From a virus (taxonomy: Duplodnaviria; Heunggongvirae; Uroviricota; Caudoviricetes): 19,034 nt of DNA. Position numbers and translations under genes: made by a program. Location: the IMG/VR virus record IMGVR_UViG_2740892047_000005; one strand, written 5' to 3'. A model generated the notes under the pieces. That model saw only the letters and a program-made list of their open reading frames with translations, did not search any database and was not told the DNA's origin. Below, piece by piece: positions 490-15,020 of this stretch (position 1 is the first letter of the stretch; the number at the start of each line of letters is the position of its first letter).

Positions 490-786
490 TTATACCTCTG
501 AATCAATATCAACCTGGTGGTGAGCAATGGTTTCAACCATGTACCGGATGTGTTCTGCCATGCGCTCCTGAAACTCAACATCGTCATCAAACGCACGGGT
601 AATGGCTTTTTTGCTGGCCCCGTGGCGTTGCAAATGATCGATGCAGAGTGATTCAAACAGGTGCTGGGACAGCCCCTTTTCCATGTCGTCTGCCAGTTCT
701 GCCTCTTTCTCTTCACGGGCGATTTGCTGGTAGTGACGTGCCCAGCTCTGAGCCTCAAGACGATCCTGAATGTAATAAGCGTTCAT
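490..786 (-). CDS. gam: Host-nuclease (RecBCD) inhibitor Gam, short form, 98 aa
   Basis: ORF track protein [21 protein letters not shown]...[10 protein letters not shown] matches lambda Gam from memory. SD-like AGGAG (rc of ctcct) just upstream of the ATG at 786. Confidence 0.93.
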
Positions 787-1546: not shown

Positions 1547-1927
1547 TCAGTCAGCCCAACCTGATTTCGAGTTTATTTGGGTTTCTGACATTGTGTATTT
1601 CTTAATCGTGTCATCGTCAAAAAGAATAGTAAGTTCTTTTTTCGTACCGTTCGTTCCATTATGGAATAATCCATAGAATGGAATAAAAGTGGTGCCATTA
1701 ACTTTTACTTTTGCAAAGGCGTACTTCCAGATCTCGTTTCCACTGTCAGTATATGAAACAGCATCAGGAGAACCAAAGTAAGATTTAACCTCATTCTTGG
1801 TTGTTTTACCTTCCTGAAGTTTAGACTGGACACTAATTTCAGTTTCATTTTTGAGTTGCTGGTTGCCTGAAGAAGCACACCCAGCCAATAGAGATGCCAT
1901 CATGGCAGCGATTAGGATTTTTCTCAT
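1547..1927 (-). CDS. Lipoprotein (126 aa) with signal peptide and lipobox LLAGC; AT-rich moron between OL and cI (rexAB position)
   Basis: N-terminus MRKILIAAMMASLLAGC has a signal peptidase II lipobox. The mature part is S/T/N/K-rich and reminiscent of small BamE/OmlA-like lipoproteins (not verified). Lies 229 bp downstream of cI on the same strand, with a terminator after it. Confidence 0.8.
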   Translation of the reverse strand: MRKILIAAMMASLLAGCASSGNQQLKNETEISVQSKLQEGKTTKNEVKSYFGSPDAVSYTDSGNEIWKYAFAKVKVNGTTFIPFYGLFHNGTNGTKKELTILFDDDTIKKYTMSETQINSKSGWAD

Positions 1928-2156: not shown

Positions 2157-2849
2157 TTAACCATGCTTCCTGTACGTCTGCGGCATGCTTCCAATGACCT
2201 TACCGAATATGAACACCCGGTTCATCTCGTCTTTCTCGATCGGGTCCCACGGCGAGTAGCTCTTGTTATCAGAGATAACCAGCAGCTTATCCTTCATCAT
2301 TTGAAGACGTTTTACATGGGCAGTGTCGTCGTACAGAAACGCATAGATGCCATCACCGTCGAAAGATTTAACAGTGATATCAACGAACAGCAGGTCACCT
2401 GGTTCGATCGTCCCTGACATGCTGTCACCGCGCACGTTAATAATGCGGATATTTTCCGCCTTCCTGCCATCGAACATGTGACGAGCATCGTCAAACGAGT
2501 ACTCAACCGAGCGTAGAACTTCCACAAACTCACGGTTGATGACACCCGGTCCGGCACTGACTTCTATATCAAGAACGTCAATCTTGAAGTATTTTGAATG
2601 GCTGACAGCAGGCTTCCCTGATTGTTGACCGTCATTTCTCATCGGGCCTATGCCTGATGAGAGCCATTCTGTTCGAACACCCAATGCATTAGCTATTTCA
2701 ACAATTTTTGTTGAGCCGCGCGCGTTGCCGCTTGTCAGTCTCCAGATTGTGGGTTGAGCTACGCCAGACGCCTTTGCAAGAGCGCCTTGAGACATTCCAG
2801 ATTGTTCCATCGCTAGGTTTAAGCGATCAGCAAGAGTTTCTTTTTTCAT
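2157..2849 (-). CDS. cI: CI-type prophage repressor (N-terminal HTH + C-terminal S24/LexA-like autopeptidase), 230 aa
   Basis: HTH segment SQGALAKASGVAQPTIWRL. S24 motifs: Ala-Gly cleavage-site-like VSAGPG, catalytic Ser in RGDSMSG, Lys in HVKRL. Start set at ATG 2849 (MKKETLADRL...) because the upstream ATG at 2885 lies inside the operator array. The PRM-like promoter implies a near-leaderless mRNA, as for lambda cI. Confidence 0.88.
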   Translation of the reverse strand: MKKETLADRLNLAMEQSGMSQGALAKASGVAQPTIWRLTSGNARGSTKIVEIANALGVRTEWLSSGIGPMRNDGQQSGKPAVSHSKYFKIDVLDIEVSAGPGVINREFVEVLRSVEYSFDDARHMFDGRKAENIRIINVRGDSMSGTIEPGDLLFVDITVKSFDGDGIYAFLYDDTAHVKRLQMMKDKLLVISDNKSYSPWDPIEKDEMNRVFIFGKVIGSMPQTYRKHG

Positions 2850-2858
2850 AAGTTTTAA

Positions 2859-2928
2859 TTTATACGCTTGCGTATTGATGGTCAAAACACGTTTTGCTAT
2901 TGCTTGGATTAATACGCATTGCTATTAT
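2859..2928. promoter_or_regulatory. OR region: three 14-bp operators at 25-bp spacing with divergent PRM (to cI) and PR (to cro)
   Basis: OR3 ATACGCTTGCGTAT (2862-2875, perfect palindrome), OR2 ACACGTTTTGCTAT (2887-2900), OR1 ATACGCATTGCTAT (2912-2925). PR: -35 TTGCTT (2900-2905), 17-bp spacer, -10 TATTAT (2923-2928), overlapping OR2 and OR1. PRM on minus: -35 TTGACC (rc of 2880-2885), -10 TATAAA (rc of 2859-2864), overlapping OR3. Confidence 0.55.
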
Positions 2929-3211: not shown

Positions 3212-3757
3212 ATGACTATGCAACCACTTACATACCAACAGACTAGCGGATTTAGCCCGACTGCGGTGATAAATCGTTCTCAAACAAAACAGGCGCCAGG
3301 CCACGAAAAAATCCGTGATGCCGTTCGCGCCTGGTCGGCTGCAGATAATCAGGATGTTGTTGCCGCACTCATTGTGAATGAGTATCGGGAGCAGGGCGGC
3401 GGCACCATCGATTTCCCTGATGATGTCAGCCGTGCACGCCAGAAGCTGTTCCGCTTCCTCGATAACAAATTCGATTCTGAAAAATACCGAAATAACGTGC
3501 GTGAACTGACCCCGGCAATTCTGGCGGTACTACCGCTGGAATATCGCGGCCACCTGGTTGAGCAGGATAGCTACATGGCTCGGCTGGCTGAAATGGAAAA
3601 GGAACTCAGTGAGGCAAAACAGGCTGTCATTCTCAACGCACCACGCCACCAGAAACTGAAGGAGATGAGTGAAGGCATTGTGTCGATGTTTCGTGTGGAC
3701 CCGGATTTGGCTGGTCCACTGATGGCGATGGTCACCACCATGCTGGGGGCAATATGA
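3212..3757 (+). CDS. YdaT-like protein (CII-position regulator of Rac-type immunity regions), 181 aa
   Basis: Segments IVNEYREQGGGTIDFP and RELTPAILAVLPLEYRGHL resemble E. coli Rac YdaT as I recall it. Immediately downstream of the cro-like gene and upstream of O. Confidence 0.75.
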   Translation: MTMQPLTYQQTSGFSPTAVINRSQTKQAPGHEKIRDAVRAWSAADNQDVVAALIVNEYREQGGGTIDFPDDVSRARQKLFRFLDNKFDSEKYRNNVRELTPAILAVLPLEYRGHLVEQDSYMARLAEMEKELSEAKQAVILNAPRHQKLKEMSEGIVSMFRVDPDLAGPLMAMVTTMLGAI

Positions 3758-3843: not shown

Positions 3844-4773
3844 ATGGCAAACACTGCTGAGATATTCAATTTTCCAGTGCCGGATGTGGCACAAAAGGAG
3901 CGGCGCGTGGCAGATCTCGACGATGGTTATACGCGCATTGCAAATGAGTTGCTGGAAGCTGTGATGCTGGCCGGATTAACACAGCACCAGCTTCTGGTCT
4001 TCCTGGCTGTCATGCGCAAAACATATGGCTTTAATAAAAGACTGGATTGGGTGAGCAACGAGCAACTTTCCGAATTGACCGGGATATTGCCGCACAAGTG
4101 TTCTGCTGCAAAAAGCGTTCTGGTAAAGCGTGGGATTCTTATTCAGAGCGGGCGAAATATCGGCATTAATAATGTGGTCAGTGAATGGTCAACATTACCC
4201 GAATCAGGTAAGAAAAATAAAGTTTACCTGAAAGAGGTAAATTTACCTGAATCAGGTAAAAAAAGTTTACCCAAATCAGGTAAAGGCGTTTACCCGAATC
4301 AGGTAAACACAAAAGACAAACTAACAAAAGACAATATAAAACCTTTTTCGTCCGAGAATTCTGGCGAATCCTCTGACCAGCCAGAAAACGACCTTCCTGT
4401 GGTGAAACCGGATGCTGCAATTCAGAGTGGCAGCAAGTGGGGGACAGCAGAAGACCTGACCGCCGCAGAGTGGATGTTTGACATGGTGAAGACCATCGCG
4501 CCATCAGCCAGAAAACCGAATTTTGCAGGGTGGGCTAACGATATCCGCCTGATGCGTGAACGTGACGGACGTAACCACCGCGAAATGTGCGTGCTGTTCC
4601 GCTGGGCATGCCAGGACAACTTCTGGTCCGGTAACGTGTTGTGTCCGGCCAAACTCCGCGACAAGTGGACACAGCTCGAAATCAACCGAAACAAGCAGCA
4701 GGCTGGCGTGACAGCCGGCAAACCAAAACTCGATCTGACGAATACTGACTGGATTTACGGGGTGGAGCTATGA
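3844..4773 (+). CDS. O: Replication initiator protein O (lambda-type), 309 aa
   Basis: From ATG 3844 (SD GGGAGGA at 3834-3840): MANTAEIFNF...RRVADLDDGYTRIANELLEA...; C-terminal half AEWMFDMVKTIAPSARKPNFAGWANDIRLMRERDGRNHREMCVLFRWACQDNFWSGNVL... matches lambda O from memory. The ORF track extends it upstream to 3754, overlapping the YdaT-like gene. Confidence 0.92.
   Translation: MANTAEIFNFPVPDVAQKERRVADLDDGYTRIANELLEAVMLAGLTQHQLLVFLAVMRKTYGFNKRLDWVSNEQLSELTGILPHKCSAAKSVLVKRGILIQSGRNIGINNVVSEWSTLPESGKKNKVYLKEVNLPESGKKSLPKSGKGVYPNQVNTKDKLTKDNIKPFSSENSGESSDQPENDLPVVKPDAAIQSGSKWGTAEDLTAAEWMFDMVKTIAPSARKPNFAGWANDIRLMRERDGRNHREMCVLFRWACQDNFWSGNVLCPAKLRDKWTQLEINRNKQQAGVTAGKPKLDLTNTDWIYGVEL
4196..4350. 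repeat. Origin of replication inside O: iterons (4196-4306) plus AT-rich unwinding region (4307-4350)
   Basis: Direct repeats ttacccgaatcaggtaa (4196), tttacctgaaagaggtaa (4223, degenerate), tttacctgaatcaggtaa (4242), tttacccaaatcaggtaa (4266), tttacccgaatcaggtaa (4289), followed by acacaaaagacaaactaacaaaagacaatataaaacc. Same arrangement as ori-lambda inside O. Confidence 0.8.
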
Positions 4774-5471
4774 AAAACATCGCCGCACAGATGATTAATT
4801 TTGACCGTGAGCAGATGCGCCGGATCGCCAACAACATGCCGGAACAGTACGACGAAAAGCCGCAGGTACAGCAGGTGGCGCAGATAATCAACGGTGTATT
4901 CAGCCAGTTACTGGCAACTTTCCCGGCTAGCCTGGCTAATCGTGACCAGAACGAACTGAACGAAATCCGCCGCCAGTGGGTTCTGGCTTTCCGGGAAAAC
5001 GGGATCACCACGATGGAACAGGTGAGCGCCGGAATGCGTATCGCCCGTCGGCAGAGTAGACCATTCCTGCCATCACCTGGGCAGTTTGTCGCCTGGTGCC
5101 GGGAAGAAGCATCCGTTAACGCCGGGCTGCCAAACGTCAGCGAGCTGGTTGATATGGTTTACGAGTATTGCCGGAAGCGTGGCCTGTATCCGGACGCAGA
5201 GTCTTATCCATGGAAATCAAACGCGCACTACTGGCTGGTTACCAACCTGTACCAGAACATGCGGGCCAATGCGCTGACTGACGCGGAATTACGGCGTAAG
5301 GCTGCCGATGAGCTGACCTGTATGACCGCGCGAATTAACCGTGGTGAGGCGATACCTGAACCAGTAAAACAACTTCCTGTCATGGGCGGTAGACCTCTAA
5401 ATCGTGCACAGTCTTTGGCGAAGATCGCAGAAATCAAAGCTAAGTTCGGACTGAAAGGAGCAAGTGTATGA
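4770..5471 (+). CDS. P: Replication protein P (DnaB helicase loader), 233 aa
   Basis: MKNIAAQMINFDREQMRRIANNMPEQYDEKPQVQQVAQIINGVFSQLL... matches lambda P essentially throughout (from memory). Start overlaps the O stop (ATGA). Confidence 0.95.
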   Translation: MKNIAAQMINFDREQMRRIANNMPEQYDEKPQVQQVAQIINGVFSQLLATFPASLANRDQNELNEIRRQWVLAFRENGITTMEQVSAGMRIARRQSRPFLPSPGQFVAWCREEASVNAGLPNVSELVDMVYEYCRKRGLYPDAESYPWKSNAHYWLVTNLYQNMRANALTDAELRRKAADELTCMTARINRGEAIPEPVKQLPVMGGRPLNRAQSLAKIAEIKAKFGLKGASV

Positions 5472-5620
5472 CGGGCAAAGAGGCAATTATTCATTGTTTG
5501 GGAATGCATAAGCGTTTCAATGCGCTAGACGTCGCTGCGACAACAGGAGTAACAATAACCAGCATAAATCAGGTGACTAGAGAGTCAAAATTTTCGTCAT
5601 TGATGGTTTGCTTCAGGTAA
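5468..5620 (+). pseudogene. ren: ren remnant: first ~35 codons of lambda-like Ren, then unrelated sequence and an early stop (50 aa)
   Basis: Hand translation from ATG 5468 (overlapping the P stop): MTGKEAIIHCLGMHKRFNALDVAATTGVTITSINQ then VTRESKFSSLMVCFR*. Lambda Ren starts MTGKEAIIHYLGTHNSFCAPDVAALTGATVTSINQAAAKMARAG... (from memory). Divergence coincides with the start of AT-rich DNA near 5573. Confidence 0.6.
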
Positions 5621-5818
5621 ATTAGCACTAAAAAAATACCTAGTTAGAAGTACCTCAATCTATATCTATTGTTATCAATGAGAGCCGGTAGAACTCGACG
5701 ATAAAGCTGGTACATCATCATCCTCAAACTTGTATAATCAGAGTCCTAAAACCGGCAATATAACTACGCTGTTGCTTCAGAATATAATGGTGAATCGTAT
5801 AATGATGTTATGAATATA

Positions 5819-6796
5819 TTAAATTGCAGGATCTTTTCCAACGGCAAGGAAAGGTTCTTGGTCTAGTGCAGTAAACGAAGCTTCGTTATTAAGCAAACGA
5901 ATAAAATATAATTTTTGTCTTTTGGTGGATAACTCAATTAACCCTGCTTGATTTATAATTATATTTCTTCCTAATATTGGGAAGTTTTGTATTAAACGCT
6001 GAATGTTAGCGATGGTTATAGTTCCGCTTTTTATTAGAGAACTGTTTGCTGTTGTAGCTAGTTTACGCATAAAATTTCTATTTTTATGCATATCATCAAA
6101 TATACCAAGTGGGTTTTGCAAGTTAGAAGTATCTAGGATATTCAATCCAATTATATGCGGTGTCGCTGTTGCTGCTAAATTATTAATTATTTGCTCGAGT
6201 CCATATACTCGCTCTAATAAGTTAATGTTTAAAGCATAGTATTTATTATTAAAATAAAAGAAATCAACATTTCCGTTTATATCAATACTGTCATGGTTAA
6301 CTTCGTCTAGTGTTCGTCCATTGGCAGAGAAATAGGATAGTCTTGTTTTTTTATGCAAAGATATTGGGTATTTATGTTGATAAACTACAACTCCATTACC
6401 TTGCCCATCGCAGAGATAGTATACAATTCCTTTAACAGAAGATAAGTCTTGCTGTTTGAAATCAAAATCAGGAGGGGTGTTATTAACTCCGAAATTAAGT
6501 ACATCTGGCATTTTTGCTAGAGCATCTGGGAGATGGTTTATTACATTATAATCATATTCGTAAACTTGTTTATCTCTATTTAGAAGGGAGGATACCAACG
6601 GCAAAAAGTTTTGACCAGCATTAGGGGCGATAACATCACGTTTAAGTGATTTGCTAAAAGATTGGGTTAATTTTTTTTCTGCACCAGGTTCTAATGCTAC
6701 TCGGTATATTTGTGTTATCCCTTTGTGTTCTGCAACGAAAAAGGCTTCACCAGAGATGTTGGCAGAATTTAAGATGTTATCTATTGCTGTAAACAT
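5819..6796 (-). CDS. Hypothetical 325-aa soluble protein, second gene of the AT-rich two-gene cassette; candidate defence effector (possibly KwaB/DUF4868-like, unverified)
   Basis: Intact ORF with RBS GAGGG 4 nt before ATG 6796. Starts 15 bp after the stop of the upstream membrane-protein gene on the same strand. No Walker A, no GS...DxD nucleotidyltransferase motif and no obvious nuclease motif seen by eye. N/I/L/K-rich, consistent with low-GC origin. Confidence 0.8.
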   Translation of the reverse strand: MFTAIDNILNSANISGEAFFVAEHKGITQIYRVALEPGAEKKLTQSFSKSLKRDVIAPNAGQNFLPLVSSLLNRDKQVYEYDYNVINHLPDALAKMPDVLNFGVNNTPPDFDFKQQDLSSVKGIVYYLCDGQGNGVVVYQHKYPISLHKKTRLSYFSANGRTLDEVNHDSIDINGNVDFFYFNNKYYALNINLLERVYGLEQIINNLAATATPHIIGLNILDTSNLQNPLGIFDDMHKNRNFMRKLATTANSSLIKSGTITIANIQRLIQNFPILGRNIIINQAGLIELSTKRQKLYFIRLLNNEASFTALDQEPFLAVGKDPAI

Positions 6797-6811
6797 AATG
6801 CCCTCATTATA

Positions 6812-7411
6812 TTAAACAATCTTTGCGAGACAAGTGTCATTATCTATTTTTATATATTTTATAGTGCTTTTATTATTTATTTCTCCACGACATATTATCA
6901 CAAATTCTTTTTTTCCGCGGTCGTTAATATTCGCTCTAAAAATTCTGAACCCTAATAGTGCAAGTGACGGATTTGAATAAAATCGATTTGTTTTAACATA
7001 AATCATTCCGATTGCAATTATCATTATTAATAGATTCAACATTGTTCGTTTGCTATTTACATCAGTAAAGACTAGTGGCATGACATAAGTTGTCAGGAAC
7101 TCTAAATGTTCATGGCTCTCGTTTTTTACGTCGGAAACAGTACATGCGACAGACCAACCAGAGTTAAATGATAAAAACAAATATAAAAATATAAAAAAAC
7201 CTGCCACCATCATTATAAAACTAAATAAAAAAACTATATTTTTGGGTGTGATTTTTGAAATGAATATAGCAAAGTCTTTATTGTTATAAGTTGAAATTAT
7301 AGTAAATATATTTTTATCATATGACATTATAAATAGAGAAACAAATAATAGCCATAGAGATAATATATATAGCGCATACTTTAAAGCTGTTCTATTTTTC
7401 ATGTTTTTCAT
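6812..7411 (-). CDS. Predicted multi-pass inner-membrane protein (about 4 TM helices), first gene of the AT-rich cassette; candidate sensor/membrane component (possibly KwaA-like, unverified)
   Basis: Hydrophobic segments ALKYALYILSLWLLFVSLFIMSY, IVFLFSFIMMVAGFFIFLYLFLSF, LEFLTTYVMPLVF, MLNLLIMIIAIGMIYV, then a ~55-aa charged C-terminal tail. Start uncertain: ATG 7411 (MKNMKNRT...), ATG 7402 or GTG 7426 (ORF track). Confidence 0.75.
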   Translation of the reverse strand: MKNMKNRTALKYALYILSLWLLFVSLFIMSYDKNIFTIISTYNNKDFAIFISKITPKNIVFLFSFIMMVAGFFIFLYLFLSFNSGWSVACTVSDVKNESHEHLEFLTTYVMPLVFTDVNSKRTMLNLLIMIIAIGMIYVKTNRFYSNPSLALLGFRIFRANINDRGKKEFVIICRGEINNKSTIKYIKIDNDTCLAKIV

Positions 7412-8362
7412 CTCTTGGGGAAACACCGTTTTGATACCGTTGCCAGCGAATATAACACTTTAATTAATTACGGTAAGTAACTTATAACAGTCAATAGATG
7501 TAAATAGAGATGGTGTGGAATCATTACTTGATGCTTTGGCACGCTACCGCCACAAACTCGTTGTGGTGAGTCTGTGGTATGTAGTCAAAACATAGATTTG
7601 CTGTTGTAATGTTACACCTGCATGGGTAACAAAATCTAGTGCGATACACATAGCCACTGACCATCTATACTGGTTTAATATACAGCATTTTATGACGATT
7701 CTCAATTATGAAACTAACTATTTTACAACCAGTTATGGATATCTATGCTTTTATGTACTAAAAATTCTTTAGTTACAGATGTATTGATGACGAGAAATTG
7801 CTAAAGCAAGATGAGTAAGGAACTAAATCAATAAAGTGGGGGCGGGGGGAGTTCGAGTGGCTAGGAGCATAGCGCTTGATTACTTTTGGTGGTTGAAAAA
7901 TGTTCGGTTGGGTGTCGCTAGGTGACTAATAGCTAAATTGGGAGATATACATATATAATATGAAATAAATCCCCACTTAATGCTTGTGAAATATTTATGT
8001 GACAAGCGGGTGTTCTTATTGATATTAAAATTCAATAACAGTGAGTTTTTATTCTTTTCTAAGTTTTGTAAATTGTTCTCACAGAGAAGGTTTAATTGTA
8101 TGTGCCTATATTTTTTTCTAGTGAATATAATGTCGGAATATATTAATATTGGCATATTCAGCAATGACTTCAAATATTCTTGATTTTCGATAATCAACTC
8201 GCCATAATCTCGTTGCTGTCGGCCTGAACATCCGGCGGTGGGGTTGCGCTAAACGGGGACGTTTATGCGCACACACAATCCAAACTCTCTTCTCCCTTCA
8301 CAGATGCAGAAATGCACCTGCGATTTTTTGTATTCTGCGTTTTACCTCTACGGAGGTGAAGC

Positions 8363-8818
8363 GTGAACCTCCCACAAGATGGTATCAAATTGCATCGCGG
8401 TAACTTCACCGCTATCGGTCGGCAGATCCAGCCTTATCTGGAGGAGGGCAAATGCTTTCGCATGGTGCTTAAACCGTGGCGCGAGAGACGCAGTCTTTCC
8501 CAGAATGCACTCAGCCACATGTGGTACAGCGAAATCAGTGAATACCTCATCAGCAAGGGTAAAACGTTCGCCACTCCAGCTTGGGTAAAAGATGCTCTCA
8601 AACACACATATCTCGGTTATGAAACCAAAGACCTGGTTGATGTCGTAACCGGTGATATCACCACTATCCAGTCGTTACGCCATACCTCCGATCTTGATAC
8701 CGGAGAGATGTATGTCTTCCTGTGTAAGGTTGAAGCCTGGGCGATGAATATTGGCTGCCACCTGACTATTCCGCAGAGCTGCGAGTTCCAGCAGCTCCGC
8801 GACAAACAGGAGGCGTAA
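8363..8818 (+). CDS. ybcN: YbcN-like nin-region protein, 151 aa
   Basis: GTG start at 8363 with SD GGAGG (8352-8356). [58 protein letters not shown]... matches DLP12 YbcN as I recall it. First gene of a tightly coupled nin-type operon. Confidence 0.8.
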
Positions 8819-10425: not shown

Positions 10426-11523
10426 TTAGAACTGGTAAACCAGACCTACAGCAACGATGTCATCAGTGCTTACACCGAGTGCTTTAGTGAAGTCATTTTT
10501 GTCAAGCAGGTTGATTTTGTAATCAACGAAAGTAGACATATTTTTGTTGAAGTAATAGGTTGCACCTACATCAACATATTTGACTAAGTCCTGATCGCCC
10601 CATACTCCAAGATCCTTACCTTTAGATTGCAGGTAAGCAACGGACGGACGCAGACCGAAATCGAACTGATATTGTGCAACAGCTTCGAAGTTTTGAGCTT
10701 TATTAGCAACGAAGTGATCAGCAAATACAGTCATATTCTGGGTTTCAGAATAGGTAGTGGCCAGGTAAATGTTGTTAGCGTCATATTTCAGACCTGCGGC
10801 CCAAACTTCTGCATTTTTACCGGAAGCAAATACTTCAGGAAGAACTTTCCCTGCATTAACTTGAGTGTCGGTACGATCAGATTTTGCATAAGTTGCACCG
10901 ATACCGAATCCTTCGTATTCATAGGTAGCAGAGAAACCGAAGCCATCACCGTTACCTTCGGTGTAGTTATCGAAATCGCTACGATCGTTTTTGCCTTGGT
11001 ACTGAGCAGCAAAGTTCAGACCATCAACCAGGCCAAAGAAGTCGTTGTTACGATAGGTTGCAACACCAGTGGTGCGACCAGTCATGAACACATCTGTTTG
11101 GGTCCAGGTATCGCCACCGAATTCTGGCAGAACGTCAGTCCACGCACCGATGTCGTATGCTACACCGTAGTTACGGCCGTAATCGATGGAGCCGTAGTCA
11201 CCGAATTTCAGGCCAGCGAAGGCAAGACGGGTTTTATCTTTGGAGGAACCTTGAGATTCAGCGCGGTTGCCTTTGAATTCATATTCCCACTGACCGAAAC
11301 CAGTCAGTTGATCGTTGATTTGGGTTTCACCTTTGAAGCCAAGACGGGCATAAGTAGTATCACCATCATCTGCATCATTAGAGGAGAAGTAGTGCTTAGC
11401 ATTAACTTTCCCGTACAGATCCAGCTTGTTACTGTCTTTATTATAAATTTCAGCTGCCTGAGCAGACATCGCCATCAGTACTGATGCAGCTACAGCAGAA
11501 ATTGCCACTGTTAATTTTTTCAT
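10426..11523 (-). CDS. nmpC: Outer-membrane general porin of the OmpC/OmpF/NmpC family, 365 aa, intact
   Basis: Signal peptide [23 protein letters not shown], then [24 protein letters not shown]... and C-terminal ...VAVGLVYQF (terminal Phe typical of beta-barrel OMPs). Convergent to Q, between Q and the lysis cassette, as nmpC is in DLP12. Confidence 0.93.
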
Positions 11524-11951
11524 CGTGAGCCCTTTTTTTTGAACTATTATTAAAAAATGATGTCACTGCGCGATAAATATTCATCTAATCAATATGATTA
11601 TTTCAAGATGTAAGTTTTGGTTTCTCGTTTGATTTGTGAAGTAGATCTCTATTTTTATCTGAACTTTTTTCTATCGAATCCTATTCATGGCTCTTGGCTG
11701 AATAAAAATAAATCTATTAGCCAATTTATATTAACGGTTGTTATTTATAAGTGCTCTATGATTTGAAGGTTCAATTTAAATCGGCTAAAAATAACACTAG
11801 AAATTATTTGTTGGTTATTTGTTGAGATTTGCTTATGTATTTGTAGTGGTGTTTTCAATACTCGGTAGCATTCTCGCAAATATCATTTAGTGGTTTACGT
11901 ACGTAAAAAATTGGTTATGCTGTTAAGAGTGGTTACTTCGTCACACAGCTT

Positions 11952-11984
11952 AAACCCGCCGTCGAGCGGGTTTTTCCATTTTTT
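11952..11984 (+). terminator. Rho-independent terminator on the plus strand, upstream of the holin gene
   Basis: Stem aaacccgc / gcgggttt with loop cgtcga (11952-11973), followed by ttccatttttt. Confidence 0.45.
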
Positions 11985-12096
11985 GAGTCTCGATATTAGC
12001 TGATAACCCAATACCTGAGTTATTCACTGACTCCGAGTCTGTTACGTTTCGTAGTATTCCCTCAATTTACACCCGCTTTGTCTGCGAGGTGGGGTT

Positions 12097-12809: not shown

Positions 12810-13243
12810 GCAGAGTAACCGCGATTATCTCCGCTCTGGTTATCTGCATCATCGTCTGCCTGTCATTGGCTGTTAATCATTACCGTGATAACGCCATGAC
12901 CTACAAAGAACAGCGCGACAAAGCCACATCCATCATCGCTGACATGCAGAAGCGTCAACGTGACGTAGCAGAACTCGATGCCAGATATACAAAGGAGCTT
13001 GCTGATGCTAACGCGACTATCGAAAGTCTCCGTGATGATGTTTCTGCTGGGCGTAAGCGGCTGCAAGTCGCCGCCTCCTGTGCAAAGTCAAAGACCGGAG
13101 CCAGCAGCATGGGCGATGGAGAAAGCCCAAGACTTACAGCAGATGCTGAACTCAATTATTACCGTCTCCGAAGTGGAATCGACAGGATAACCGCGCAGGT
13201 TAACTACCTGCAGGAGTACATCAGGACGCAATGTCTGAAATAA
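12806..13243 (+). CDS. Spanin inner-membrane subunit Rz (i-spanin), 145 aa
   Basis: ATG 12806 overlapping the endolysin stop (ATGA). N-terminal [20 protein letters not shown], then a coiled-coil-like charged periplasmic domain. Position after the endolysin. Confidence 0.82.
13005..13190 (+). CDS. Spanin outer-membrane lipoprotein subunit Rz1 (o-spanin), embedded in the +1 frame of Rz, 61 aa
   Basis: ATG 13005 with strong SD AAAGGAG (12991-12997). [20 protein letters not shown] signal plus lipobox, followed by Pro-rich [13 protein letters not shown]. Entirely inside Rz in another frame, the classic Rz/Rz1 arrangement. Confidence 0.72.
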
Positions 13244-13274
13244 TTTTTTTGCAAATCACAAAGTCCATTTAATG

Positions 13275-13333
13275 AGCCTCGCGATGCGGGGCTTTTTTGC
13301 AATAAATGCGTACCGCAACGCATGTTTTTTTTT
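13275..13333 (+). terminator. Two tandem rho-independent terminators downstream of the lysis cassette
   Basis: T1: agcctcgc-gatg-cggggct followed by tttttt (13275-13298). T2: atgcgt-accgca-acgcat followed by g + T9 (13306-13333). Confidence 0.5.
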
Positions 13334-13448
13334 ACACCGAACCTGCCCCTTTGGAATGGGCCTTTGAGGATACCAGTTAGTGCTGGCGAGCCTCGGTGGG
13401 CTGGTTTCCTGTGCGGCAAAGGTTCATTTCAAATGGTAGGTAAACGTT

Positions 13449-13970
13449 ATGAATATCGTGCCACTTAATTACAAAGGTGAAATTGTCAGTTTCAACACTG
13501 ATGGTTGGATCAACGTCACAGGTGTTGCTGAGAGATTTGGGAAACGCATTGATAACTGGATGCGTTTGGCAGAAACGCTTGAATACGTTCGTGCTTTAGA
13601 CGAAGCGTTGACCGGGAAAGAATCTCAAATTTTACATCCCTCACAATCGAGGTATGTAAAAACCAGCAAGGCACGAAAGGACAGGGGTGGTGGTACGTGG
13701 CTACATCCAAAACTTTCAGTTGCATTTGCCCGTTGGTGTGATGCTCGTTTTGCTGTGTGGTGCGACCTGCACATTGATAGTCTGCTTCGCGGTGAACTGA
13801 CTGAGCAGCAGAAATATGAGCAAGCATGTCGCATTCGCGATGACCGGAAATCAAAAGCCAGCAATGGGGCAAGAGAGATGGCTCGCTGGCGATGGGATAA
13901 GCCGGTTATTGAAGCAAATGTTGAGTACTGGCGCGAGCAACTGCAGTTGACTCTCGATATCGCGTGCTGA
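13449..13970 (+). CDS. KilA-N domain protein (antirepressor-like N-terminal DNA-binding domain), 173 aa
   Basis: N-terminal region NYKGEIVSFNTDGWINVTGVAERFGKRIDNWMRL...WLHPKLSVAFARWCD fits the KilA-N/APSES-like pattern as I recall it; not verified by HMM. Confidence 0.7.
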   Translation: MNIVPLNYKGEIVSFNTDGWINVTGVAERFGKRIDNWMRLAETLEYVRALDEALTGKESQILHPSQSRYVKTSKARKDRGGGTWLHPKLSVAFARWCDARFAVWCDLHIDSLLRGELTEQQKYEQACRIRDDRKSKASNGAREMARWRWDKPVIEANVEYWREQLQLTLDIAC

Positions 13971-14319
13971 TGGCAAACGCAAAACTGCGTTATCGAAAAA
14001 ATCAAAGCATTACTAGAACTGAGCAACGGCTATCCATTACAAAGCCCATCTACGGGTGGGCTTGATAATGGCTTATACCCTGCACGGGATAACTTAACTG
14101 ATATCCCTTTTAACGGATAAAGGCATTCAAGCCTGACACATCATGCGCTGTATCGTCGCCGTATTCCCGTATTAACAGAGACCGTAGCCCGACGGGGAAC
14201 TCCTTCTGCGCGAGTGTGCGGGAATAATCAAAAACGATGCACACCGGGGTTACCGGGTACACATATTTCATCATGCCAGCGAGTCCGGTTCTGGCACGGA
14301 AGAAACCGGACGTTATGAT

Positions 14320-14730
14320 TTAGTGCGGAAATATTTGTGTAGTGTTCTGAATGTTCTCAGTAAAGAGTAATGAATTATCAAAGGTATAGTAATACCTTTT
14401 GTTTTCGTGGATATTTGTAATCCATCTGAAAACCCCTGCTGTAGCAAGATTTTTTCTGTATTCGTAAAATGATAACTCTCCTGATTTGAATCCTTTTAAG
14501 GTGGCTTCTATAAGGCATTTATTTTTTGAAAATCTTACATTTACAACCTTACCCTGTCCTTTTATTAAAACCGTATTATCGTTTTCAAGAACAAGATGAA
14601 TATTCTCTGTGGCTAAATAGTAAATGTAATGTGAGACATTGTGACGTTTTAGTTCAGAATAAAACCAGTGATAGTTTAAATTATTTCGCACTTTATCGAA
14701 TATTTGTTTAAAAATGGCAACCTGAGCCAT
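14320..14730 (-). CDS. ybcV: YbcV-like protein (DUF1398 family), 136 aa, AT-rich
   Basis: From ATG 14730 (SD GGAAGG 7 nt upstream): [58 protein letters not shown]... matches DLP12 YbcV as I recall it. ORF track starts 5 codons earlier at 14745, with no SD. Confidence 0.75.
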
Positions 14731-14786
14731 TGTAGTACCTTCCATGTGATATGAGGGGCGTAGTCTGCACGATTATCTAAATTGCT

Positions 14787-15020
14787 TCAATCTGGTCTAA
14801 CCTGTTTTCTGAGCAATTCAGTAATGTCACTCTTTTCTTTGTTTGCTTCAGGCGAAACTCTTTTTTCTGAGCACAGTCTCCGGCGGCAGGCTTCAATGAC
14901 CCAGGCTGAGAAATTCCCGGACCCTTTTTGCTCAAGAGCGATGTTAATTTGTTCAATCATTTGGTTAGGAAAGCGGATGTTGCGGGTTGTTGTTCTGCGG
15001 GTTCTGTTCTTCGTTGACAT
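14787..15020 (-). CDS. Small basic protein, YlcI-like (DUF3950), 77 aa
   Basis: MSTKNRTRRTTTRNIRFPNQMIEQINIALEQKGSGNFSAWVIEACRRRL...: N-terminal part looks like a ribbon-helix-helix-type DNA-binding segment and resembles DLP12 YlcI from memory. Confidence 0.6.
   Translation of the reverse strand: MSTKNRTRRTTTRNIRFPNQMIEQINIALEQKGSGNFSAWVIEACRRRLCSEKRVSPEANKEKSDITELLRKQVRPD

Follow-up and report, generated by a model that had tools for sequence, protein, structure and literature searches.

A divergent Kiwa module in the variable cargo slot between ren and ybcN of a DLP12-like lambdoid prophage

The IMG/VR record IMGVR_UViG_2740892047_000005, a DNA of 19,034 nucleotides that was analyzed in full and is called the window throughout, belongs to a DLP12-like lambdoid prophage of E. 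coli and contains a low-GC block between a truncated ren gene and the conserved genes ylcH and ybcN. Our reading, to which we assign a probability of roughly 0.88, is that this block (5574–8179) is a self-contained Kiwa moron, comprising a promoter, a leader, kwaA, and kwaB, that was acquired by recombination, resides in a cargo slot of the prophage, and is probably repressed by LexA. A moron is an add-on gene with its own promoter. The main finding is ordinary, because the system is known and the lambdoid cargo slot is of a long-known kind. The module of LexA box and leader in this lambdoid-borne clade may be new, as may the description, down to single bases, of a slot that is fixed at one end and ragged at the other. 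The block and its two genes are:

5574–8179, 2606 bp: low-GC foreign block between the truncated ren and the conserved right junction
5819–6796, minus strand: kwaB, encoding a DUF4868 protein of 325 aa
6812–7402, minus strand: kwaA, encoding a membrane protein of 196 aa, counted from the conserved ATG at 7402

The cargo has the sequence features that define the Kiwa family and represents a divergent sub-clade. KwaA matched the PADLOC profile PDLC00220 over its full length (5.4e-88) and reached 182.2 bits with the NCBIfam equivalog NF041622 (cut-off 100). KwaB matched PADLOC PDLC00232, also over its full length (7.4e-149), and Pfam PF16162 (3e-27, 96.3 bits, cut-off 26.3). With phmmer, the solved KwaA proteins 9o0i and 9mrg were matched over residues 2–166, including the transmembrane region (E = 1.4e-18), and the solved KwaB 9mrx over residues 35–322 (E = 1.2e-8). 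A Kyte-Doolittle scan of KwaA at a threshold of 1.6 revealed three clear hydrophobic segments (9–27, 56–74, and 120–138); four transmembrane helices have been described for KwaA (PMC11785009). The two genes are encoded on the same strand, and the kwaA stop at 6812 and the kwaB start at 6796 are separated by a 15-nt gap that contains GAGGG. Inspection of the open reading frame (ORF) list and searches of Pfam, PADLOC, NCBIfam, and PHROG yielded no other supported gene in the block.

Both genes have the same lengths as their homologues. In comparison with the closest relatives (80–85% identity at the amino acid level, about 75% at the nucleotide level), dN was about 0.1 and dS was saturated, and dN/dS was 0.04–0.07 where it could be calculated. 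This shows that kwaA and kwaB are under purifying selection. In one relative (L008/L015; here and below, L-numbers denote compared loci, and coordinates given with them are locus coordinates) kwaA is frameshifted, which shows that decay is recognizable when it occurs; no frameshift is present in the window. The same cassette was found in the same prophage context and with 99.5–99.6% identity in four complete E. coli genomes, in which PGAP already annotates the Kiwa genes. Of the 5426 complete genomes of E. coli, only these four carry it. The PLSDB plasmids contained no match, and among the sequenced phages of INPHARED the flanks were matched, but the cassette was not.

In IMG/VR, one contig (L004) was identical in arrangement, and in 13 further contigs KwaB was 81–87% identical. 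A protein-pattern scan of the GTDB species representatives found no relative; through a DNA-motif scan, the contig L029 and, from the GTDB representatives, Enterobacter sp. kpr-6 were added. The clade occurs in lambdoid prophages of several genera of Enterobacterales, and the named hosts of close KwaB homologues include Klebsiella, Salmonella, Enterobacter, Serratia, and Erwinia. Wherever replication genes were visible, the Kiwa genes lay downstream of O/P homologues and always antisense to them. Four small genes are located between P and kwaB in L005, and an intact Ren-like gene precedes kwaB in L010. Kiwa relatives with 54–60% identity are found in different settings, which are the neighbourhood of an inovirus, the chromosome of an Aeromonas, and the vicinity of type I restriction systems.

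The borders of the block and the cargo slot

The features at both borders of the block are:

4770–5471, plus strand: P, lambda-type replication gene (Pfam Phage_lambda_P, 1.4e-61), conserved left flank of the slot
5468–5620, plus strand: truncated ren of 50 codons, the last 15 codons and the stop codon being derived from foreign DNA
5574–5818: non-coding 3′ flank of kwaB, left end of the block, GC content 0.343
7688–8179: AT-rich, lineage-specific spacer of about 490 bp with the G-run GGGGGCGGGGGG at 7838–7849
8180–8245, plus strand: conserved right junction with a palindrome, a promoter-like pair, and a hairpin
8265–8366, plus strand: ylcH-like orf33, conserved right flank
8363–8818, plus strand: ybcN, NinB/Orf-like (PHROG NinB/Orf, 3.7e-52; NCBIfam PRK09741, 8.7e-84)

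The initial annotation, which was based on the nucleotide sequence alone, had described positions 5573–8340 as a foreign low-GC insertion that truncates ren. A sliding GC profile revealed a trough of 0.27–0.36 from about 5600 to 8200, with values of 0.5–0.57 on both sides. The GC content of the block is 0.323, compared to 0.508 for the left flank and 0.470 for the right flank, and the lowest value of any other 2606-bp stretch within the window is 0.416. The break in composition is thus real, and the block is foreign in composition and unrelated to lambda or DLP12.

At the left border, blastn against lambda (J02459) yielded 92% nucleotide identity for 4307–5573 and no match beyond. Codons 1–35 of ren are lambda-like, and codon 36 has its first base at 5573. 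In an alignment with ren of lambda and five E. coli ren genes, the sequence of the window is identical up to ...AATCAGG and unrelated thereafter. The claim that ren resembles lambda for about 35 codons and then runs through unrelated sequence into an early stop was therefore correct, and the gene is truncated exactly at the left breakpoint, 5573. The Ren-like PHROG family phrog_142 covers only residues 1–39 of the product. A family of short Ren N-termini, phrog_7054 (profile length 57), matched better (1.7e-17) than the full-length Ren family, indicating that N-terminal Ren stubs are recurrent enough in phage genomes to form a family of their own. A 3′ fragment of ren was found nowhere in the window; the last two-thirds of the gene are gone.

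The right border had to be moved. Homology to DLP12 (NC_000913), with 94–97% identity, restarts at 8180, which is 84 nt ahead of the ylcH-like orf33, and homology to phage 82 restarts at 8245. The claim that lambda/DLP12-like sequence resumes shortly before ybcN thus held, and the left breakpoint had been placed correctly, but the right one lies at 8179/8180 and not at 8340. The overshoot of about 160 nt had covered the conserved junction as well as the greater part of the ylcH-like orf33. Within the block, the 3′ flank of kwaB (5574–5818) had no blastn or tblastx match at related Kiwa loci, and its only relatives are within the same cassette. Likewise, sensitive blastn searches with the spacer found relatives only in the same four E. 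coli genomes. Its two ORFs, 7880–8197 on the minus strand and 7980–8183 on the plus strand, had no match in Pfam, PADLOC, NCBIfam, or PHROG and do not represent supported genes. The spacer may be debris of an earlier cargo.

The interval between ren and ybcN is well supported as a variable cargo slot and hotspot. It was compared with DLP12 and seven other E. coli loci, all of which have the left flank of the window. Homology restarts at exactly 8180 in DLP12 and in six of the seven other loci, and at 8245 in the seventh. The left junction is ragged: in five loci ren is intact and precedes the cargo, and elsewhere the cargo begins at about codon 9 in the locus with PRTase/NADAR, at about codon 4 in the locus with P22AR/HEPN, and at codon 35 in the window. 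The fillings between P and ybcN in a spread sample of E. coli genomes include small hypothetical genes, a TagO-like gene, an acyltransferase together with a lipoprotein, a PRTase-like gene together with NADAR, P22AR together with HEPN, and an Ea22-like gene. For DLP12, the initial annotation had stated that unrelated cargo lies next to a ren pseudogene, and this proved accurate: renD is split by IS3C and is followed by emrE, ylcJ, ybcK, ybcL, ybcM, and ylcH-ybcN.

When IMG/VR was scanned for exact matches to the hairpin motif of the right junction, at least 120 loci were obtained, of which the 65 with a lambda-type P upstream were used. In these contigs, the interval from P to the junction has a length of 1.1–5.6 kb. 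Together with the window, the 66 intervals form 27 cargo clusters, and most of the other clusters have a GC content of 0.33–0.46. The proposal of a recurrent integration hotspot therefore agrees with differing cargo in all eight E. coli comparators as well as with the number of clusters. In 8 of the 27 clusters ren is absent, and in three it is partial (35, 51, or 58 aa). Truncation of ren is a common by-product, the gene is expendable, and its loss is no peculiarity of this locus. Matches of cargo ORFs to defence models include PD-Lambda-1 (2e-198), AbiLi/AbiLii, SIR2/pAgo-like proteins, a type II methyltransferase, an AriA-like protein, and several PADLOC candidate families (PDC). Other cargo families are SMR efflux proteins, an invasin-type autotransporter, PEBP, hydrolases, Bro-N/P22AR, and Ea22. 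Many cargo ORFs have no known family, and the slot could thus be mined for new defence genes, although the practical value is modest. A literature search with partial coverage found no paper that names the ren/ylcH slot as a defence hotspot, and we do not claim that the slot is undescribed.

The right junction is composed of several elements. The palindrome TTGATTTTCGATAATCAA at 8180–8197 has the structure TTGATT-N6-AATCAA with invariant half-sites and a variable spacer. In the promoter scan, the −35 box of the palindrome formed a promoter-like pair with CATAAT at 8203–8208. The hairpin at 8215–8239 has the conserved loop CCTGAACA, and its stem in the window differs from the others yet pairs. 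The junction may serve to link modules during their exchange, or it may act as an operator or in a terminator-like manner. Its motif occurs twice in L058, L090, L093, and L150, and a partial ylcH copy is present in L034:1663–1761. The doubled motifs suggest that cargo modules could be stacked by recombination at the junction sequence.

The region upstream of kwaA

Outside of kwaA and kwaB, the nucleotide similarity to the relatives is lost, with the exception of one stretch upstream of kwaA. Silent sites between the loci are saturated, and therefore, the invariant blocks in this stretch must be under selection. It contains the following features:

7668–7687: LexA (SOS) box TACTGGTTTAATATACAGCA, 20 nt, reading TGCTGTATATTAAACCAGTA on the kwaA strand
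7700–7705 (−35) and 7677–7682 (−10), minus strand: promoter-like pair directed toward kwaA, found in the promoter scan, conserved in position
7403–7667, minus strand: conserved leader of about 265 nt with three invariant motifs

With a position-specific scoring matrix (PSSM), the LexA box of the window scored 22.8 bits, which lies within the range of the training sites, and no other site of the 19 kb exceeded 13.0 bits. The orthologous boxes scored 18.9–25.8 bits, and the CTG-N10-CAG operator is close to the consensus. The −10 hexamer lies inside the box. The box has been kept in 15 of the 15 loci of this Kiwa clade, and no LexA box was found at the 54–60% identical Kiwa loci outside lambdoid phages. 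Judged from these motifs, LexA control of this clade is reasonably likely. An exact scan for the box combined with the GGCGGTAGCGTG motif matched only these Kiwa loci. The study of the characterized Kiwa system (PMC11785009) does not mention LexA or SOS, and a literature search with partial coverage found no paper linking Kiwa with LexA.

The invariant motifs of the leader are TGTGGCGGTAGCGTG (plus-strand positions 7540–7554), CCAUCUCU (7506–7513), and AAGAGAUG (7409–7416, just 5′ of the start codon). CCAUCUCU is complementary to AAGAGAUG, and RNAalifold pairs both. Other hairpins of the leader contain 8 compensatory pairs, a number reached by none of 500 shuffles, with only about six independent lineages contributing. 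Rfam had no family match over 5400–8500 even at E = 1. In an Aeromonas Kiwa locus without a LexA box (L041, locus start 5397), the 11-nt core GGCGGTAGCGT recurs about 215 nt ahead of kwaA, and the leader motif may therefore predate LexA control. Two further candidates were rejected, the alternative that CCAUCUCU of the window pairs with an AGAUGG lying 5′, which is not conserved, and a leader peptide, of which the upstream ATG meets a stop codon or a frame shift in the relatives.

In most relatives, a dinI-like gene with a strong LexA box of its own is located divergently next to kwaA:

L005:2745–2978, L006:4418–4651, L010:4255–4488, L012:4580–4804, and L013/L017:4570–4803, all minus strand: dinI-like genes

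Behind it there is frequently an ORF of some 100 aa, which may, as a guess, encode a Gifsy-type antirepressor. A dinI remnant was looked for in the spacer of the window (7688–8179) and was not found.

Origin of the block and alternative readings

Neither direct or inverted repeats nor a target duplication flank 5574/8179; a transposon or att-type signature was not found, and no recombinase or transposase gene is present in or beside the block. The absence of flanking repeats, together with the missing 3′ two-thirds of ren, points to the replacement of a module by recombination and not to a clean insertion. Of the proposed foreign insertion truncating ren, the foreign nature and the truncation were thus borne out, whereas the term insertion is imprecise. 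Most likely, the module was acquired from another lambdoid phage, with which the conserved flanks recombined; this classical lambdoid route is the most economical one. An early illegitimate event would have created the breakpoint in ren, and later the module would have moved between lambdoid phages by homologous recombination in the conserved flanks. The sharp break in composition inside an ORF could also be explained if a mobile element, be it an insertion sequence (IS), a transposon, an integron-type cassette, or a site-specific recombinase, had inserted directly into ren as its specific target, and serine recombinases indeed occur in some cargoes of the slot (ybcK in DLP12; Resolvase/Zn_ribbon_recom matches). 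We give this scenario hardly any credence, because neither a target-site duplication nor terminal inverted repeats nor a recombinase gene were found in or beside the block, because the 3′ part of ren is absent and not displaced to the other side, and because the right junction is the same for unrelated cargoes, whereas the left one varies from ren codon 4 to a position after ren.

Several observations speak against the view of the block as a functional, LexA-repressed Kiwa moron. The Kiwa clade of the window is only about 25–30% identical to the solved E. coli system. With 138.5 bits, the divergent KwaB remains under the cut-off of 200 of the NCBIfam KwaB equivalog, which explains the PGAP label "KwaB-like domain-containing" that it bears in the four E. 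coli genomes. Of the DNA-contact residues predicted with AF3 (N134, R142, R167, D169, K187, and R233), one is identical (R233 to R244), one is conservatively exchanged (R142 to K149), and the other four differ in the HMMER alignment, which is distant and uncertain. A minus-strand terminator-like site downstream of kwaB was not found in 5574–5818, where the fold was not significant. The matrix for LexA derives from an informally compiled set of E. coli SOS boxes, with training sites scoring 12–27.5 bits, and the distance of about 265 nt between the box and the kwaA start codon is far for an SOS gene. Both sides of the candidate anti-Shine-Dalgarno helix between CCAUCUCU and AAGAGAUG are invariant, and covariation thus speaks neither for nor against it. 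The leader of the window alone folds no better than shuffled sequences (z = −1.25). Lastly, the rationale of an SOS-timed defence at prophage induction is not demonstrated.

On the basis of the low equivalog score, the many differing contact residues, the rarity of the cassette in complete E. coli genomes, and the junk-like spacer, kwaAB could be regarded as a decaying or inactive passenger of this prophage. This is very improbable, as both ORFs are full length against the profiles, dN/dS is low (0.04–0.07), the promoter, the LexA box, and the leader motifs are conserved across genera, and the decay that is visible in kwaA of L008/L015 is not seen in the window. A different objection concerns only the LexA box, which might be a leftover or second operator of a divergent LexA-regulated dinI/antirepressor operon and not control kwaAB. 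In 9 related loci, the dinI-like gene has its own box at a distance of 285–600 bp (further away in two loci) from the kwaA-side box and pointing away, and the dinI homologues of Gifsy prophages are known LexA targets (PMC8072944). However, the kwaA-side box is found at a fixed distance from kwaA and overlaps the conserved −35/−10 pair that faces kwaA. In addition, it persists in the window, L018, and L029, which have neither a second box nor dinI nearby, and the nearest promoter-like site on the plus strand of the window starts 35 nt past the box. We regard this explanation as unlikely.

Proposed function, prophage setting, and known systems

For the characterized Kiwa system, it has been reported that KwaA tetramers and KwaB dimers form a membrane supercomplex, which is activated where a phage attaches or ejects its DNA (PMC11785009). 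KwaB uses DUF4868 to bind DNA, brings replication forks to a halt, and prevents late transcription, and the cell survives (PMC11785009). By analogy, KwaA of the window would form a membrane sensor of attaching phages or of DNA being ejected, KwaB would bind the incoming DNA so that replication and late transcription are stalled, and the lysogen, and hence the prophage, would be protected from superinfecting phages. The resident prophage replicates from inside and would thus not trip a sensor of incoming phages. Lambda Gam binds KwaB and inhibits Kiwa, and the inhibition is complete without RecBCD (PMC11785009). Two genes of the prophage are relevant in this respect and for the SOS response:

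490–786, minus strand: gam (Pfam Gam, 6.6e-64)
2157–2885, minus strand: CI-type repressor with an S24 autocleavage domain (Pfam HTH_3 and Peptidase_S24, 1.5e-18)

Gam of the prophage may add self-protection, with the reservation that the inhibition was studied with a different KwaB. The direction of kwaAB transcription is opposite to the phage early-right operon. Expression is probably repressed by LexA and would be released in the SOS response, and we hypothesize, as only a hypothesis, that the long leader masks the ribosome-binding site. As the repressor of the prophage contains an S24 domain, induction and the promoter with the LexA box would answer to the same RecA signal. Tentatively, and with somewhat less than even confidence, this can be extended to a wider picture, in which the Kiwa clade is a dedicated lambdoid module that is wired to SOS via its own LexA operator and has a leader-gated translation, and in which the ren/ylcH slot is a defence-rich exchange point that uses palindrome and hairpin as a recombination linker for swapping and stacking. 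If true, one and the same signal would induce the prophage and raise the defence. The composition break that had been seen by eye marks real defence cargo, and the LexA box offers a simple hypothesis on how a prophage might time defence relative to its own induction, a point on which the published Kiwa work is silent.

The remainder of the prophage is that of a DLP12-like lambdoid phage, with gam, an S24-type repressor, a YdaT-like gene, O, P, ylcH-ybcN-ninE-ybcO-rusA-Q, a porin gene, and lysis genes. The gene at the position of cII (3212–3757) carries a YdaT toxin domain (Pfam 2.4e-29). Three other patches of low GC content (0.32–0.39) are moron-like. The patch at 1401–2200 contains a gene for a BamE-like lipoprotein (1547–1927, minus strand) next to the repressor gene. 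The patch at 11400–12000 is the gap between the lysis genes and an NmpC-type porin gene (10426–11523, minus strand), which is intact here and disrupted by IS5 in K-12. The third patch, 14300–14800, contains a DUF1398 (ybcV-like) gene. The prophage of strain DETEC-E480 (L001) is otherwise 95–99% identical, but does not align to 13015–14034, a segment of about 1 kb that has been swapped; an ORF is located therein at 13449–13970, and its counterpart in L001 is a Rha-family gene.

Comparison with the characterized E. coli Kiwa system (PMC11785009; 9mrx, 9mrg, 9o0i) shows the same operon with kwaA followed by kwaB and matches over nearly the full length. In contrast, the system in the window has an upstream LexA box and a long leader, and the sequence relation is only distant. 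An association with prophages is in line with the published data, as 197 or 198 dereplicated kwaA/kwaB genes co-localize with prophages (PMC11785009).

Two LexA-regulated systems resemble the upstream region of kwaA. In tisB/istR-1, as probably for kwaA, a small membrane protein is under LexA control, and in both cases over 200 nt separate the box from the start codon. The tisB gene also has a long structured leader, which limits translation. There is no sequence relationship between the two systems, and, unlike for tisB/istR-1, no antisense small RNA was identified in the window. The LexA box of tisB is listed at 236 bp from the start codon (PMC8072944, Table 1). LexA-controlled dinI/antirepressor operons are present in Gifsy-type lambdoid prophages (Lemire et al. 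2011, cited in PMC8072944), and there, too, the LexA box is situated between the replication genes and the nin region. In contrast to Gifsy, the window contains no dinI gene, and the box faces a defence operon and not an induction switch.

The slot itself can be compared with the P2 and P4 defence hotspots (PMC9122126, PMC9519451), which also have a fixed position between conserved phage genes and carry interchangeable anti-phage systems, often of low GC content. They differ in phage family and position, and the slot described here has one fixed and one ragged boundary and additionally accommodates cargo unrelated to defence, such as an efflux pump, an invasin-like protein, and PEBP. The closest counterpart of the locus is the renD-ybcN interval of DLP12. 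It is the same slot with the same right junction, position 8180 of the window corresponding to the site 33 bp after the ybcM stop codon, and the right flank ylcH-ybcN-ninE-ybcO-rusA is 94–97% identical to that of the window. However, the cargo of DLP12 is unrelated and oriented in the same direction as the phage operon, and its renD is of full length and split by IS3C, whereas ren in the window has been cut by the Kiwa cargo.

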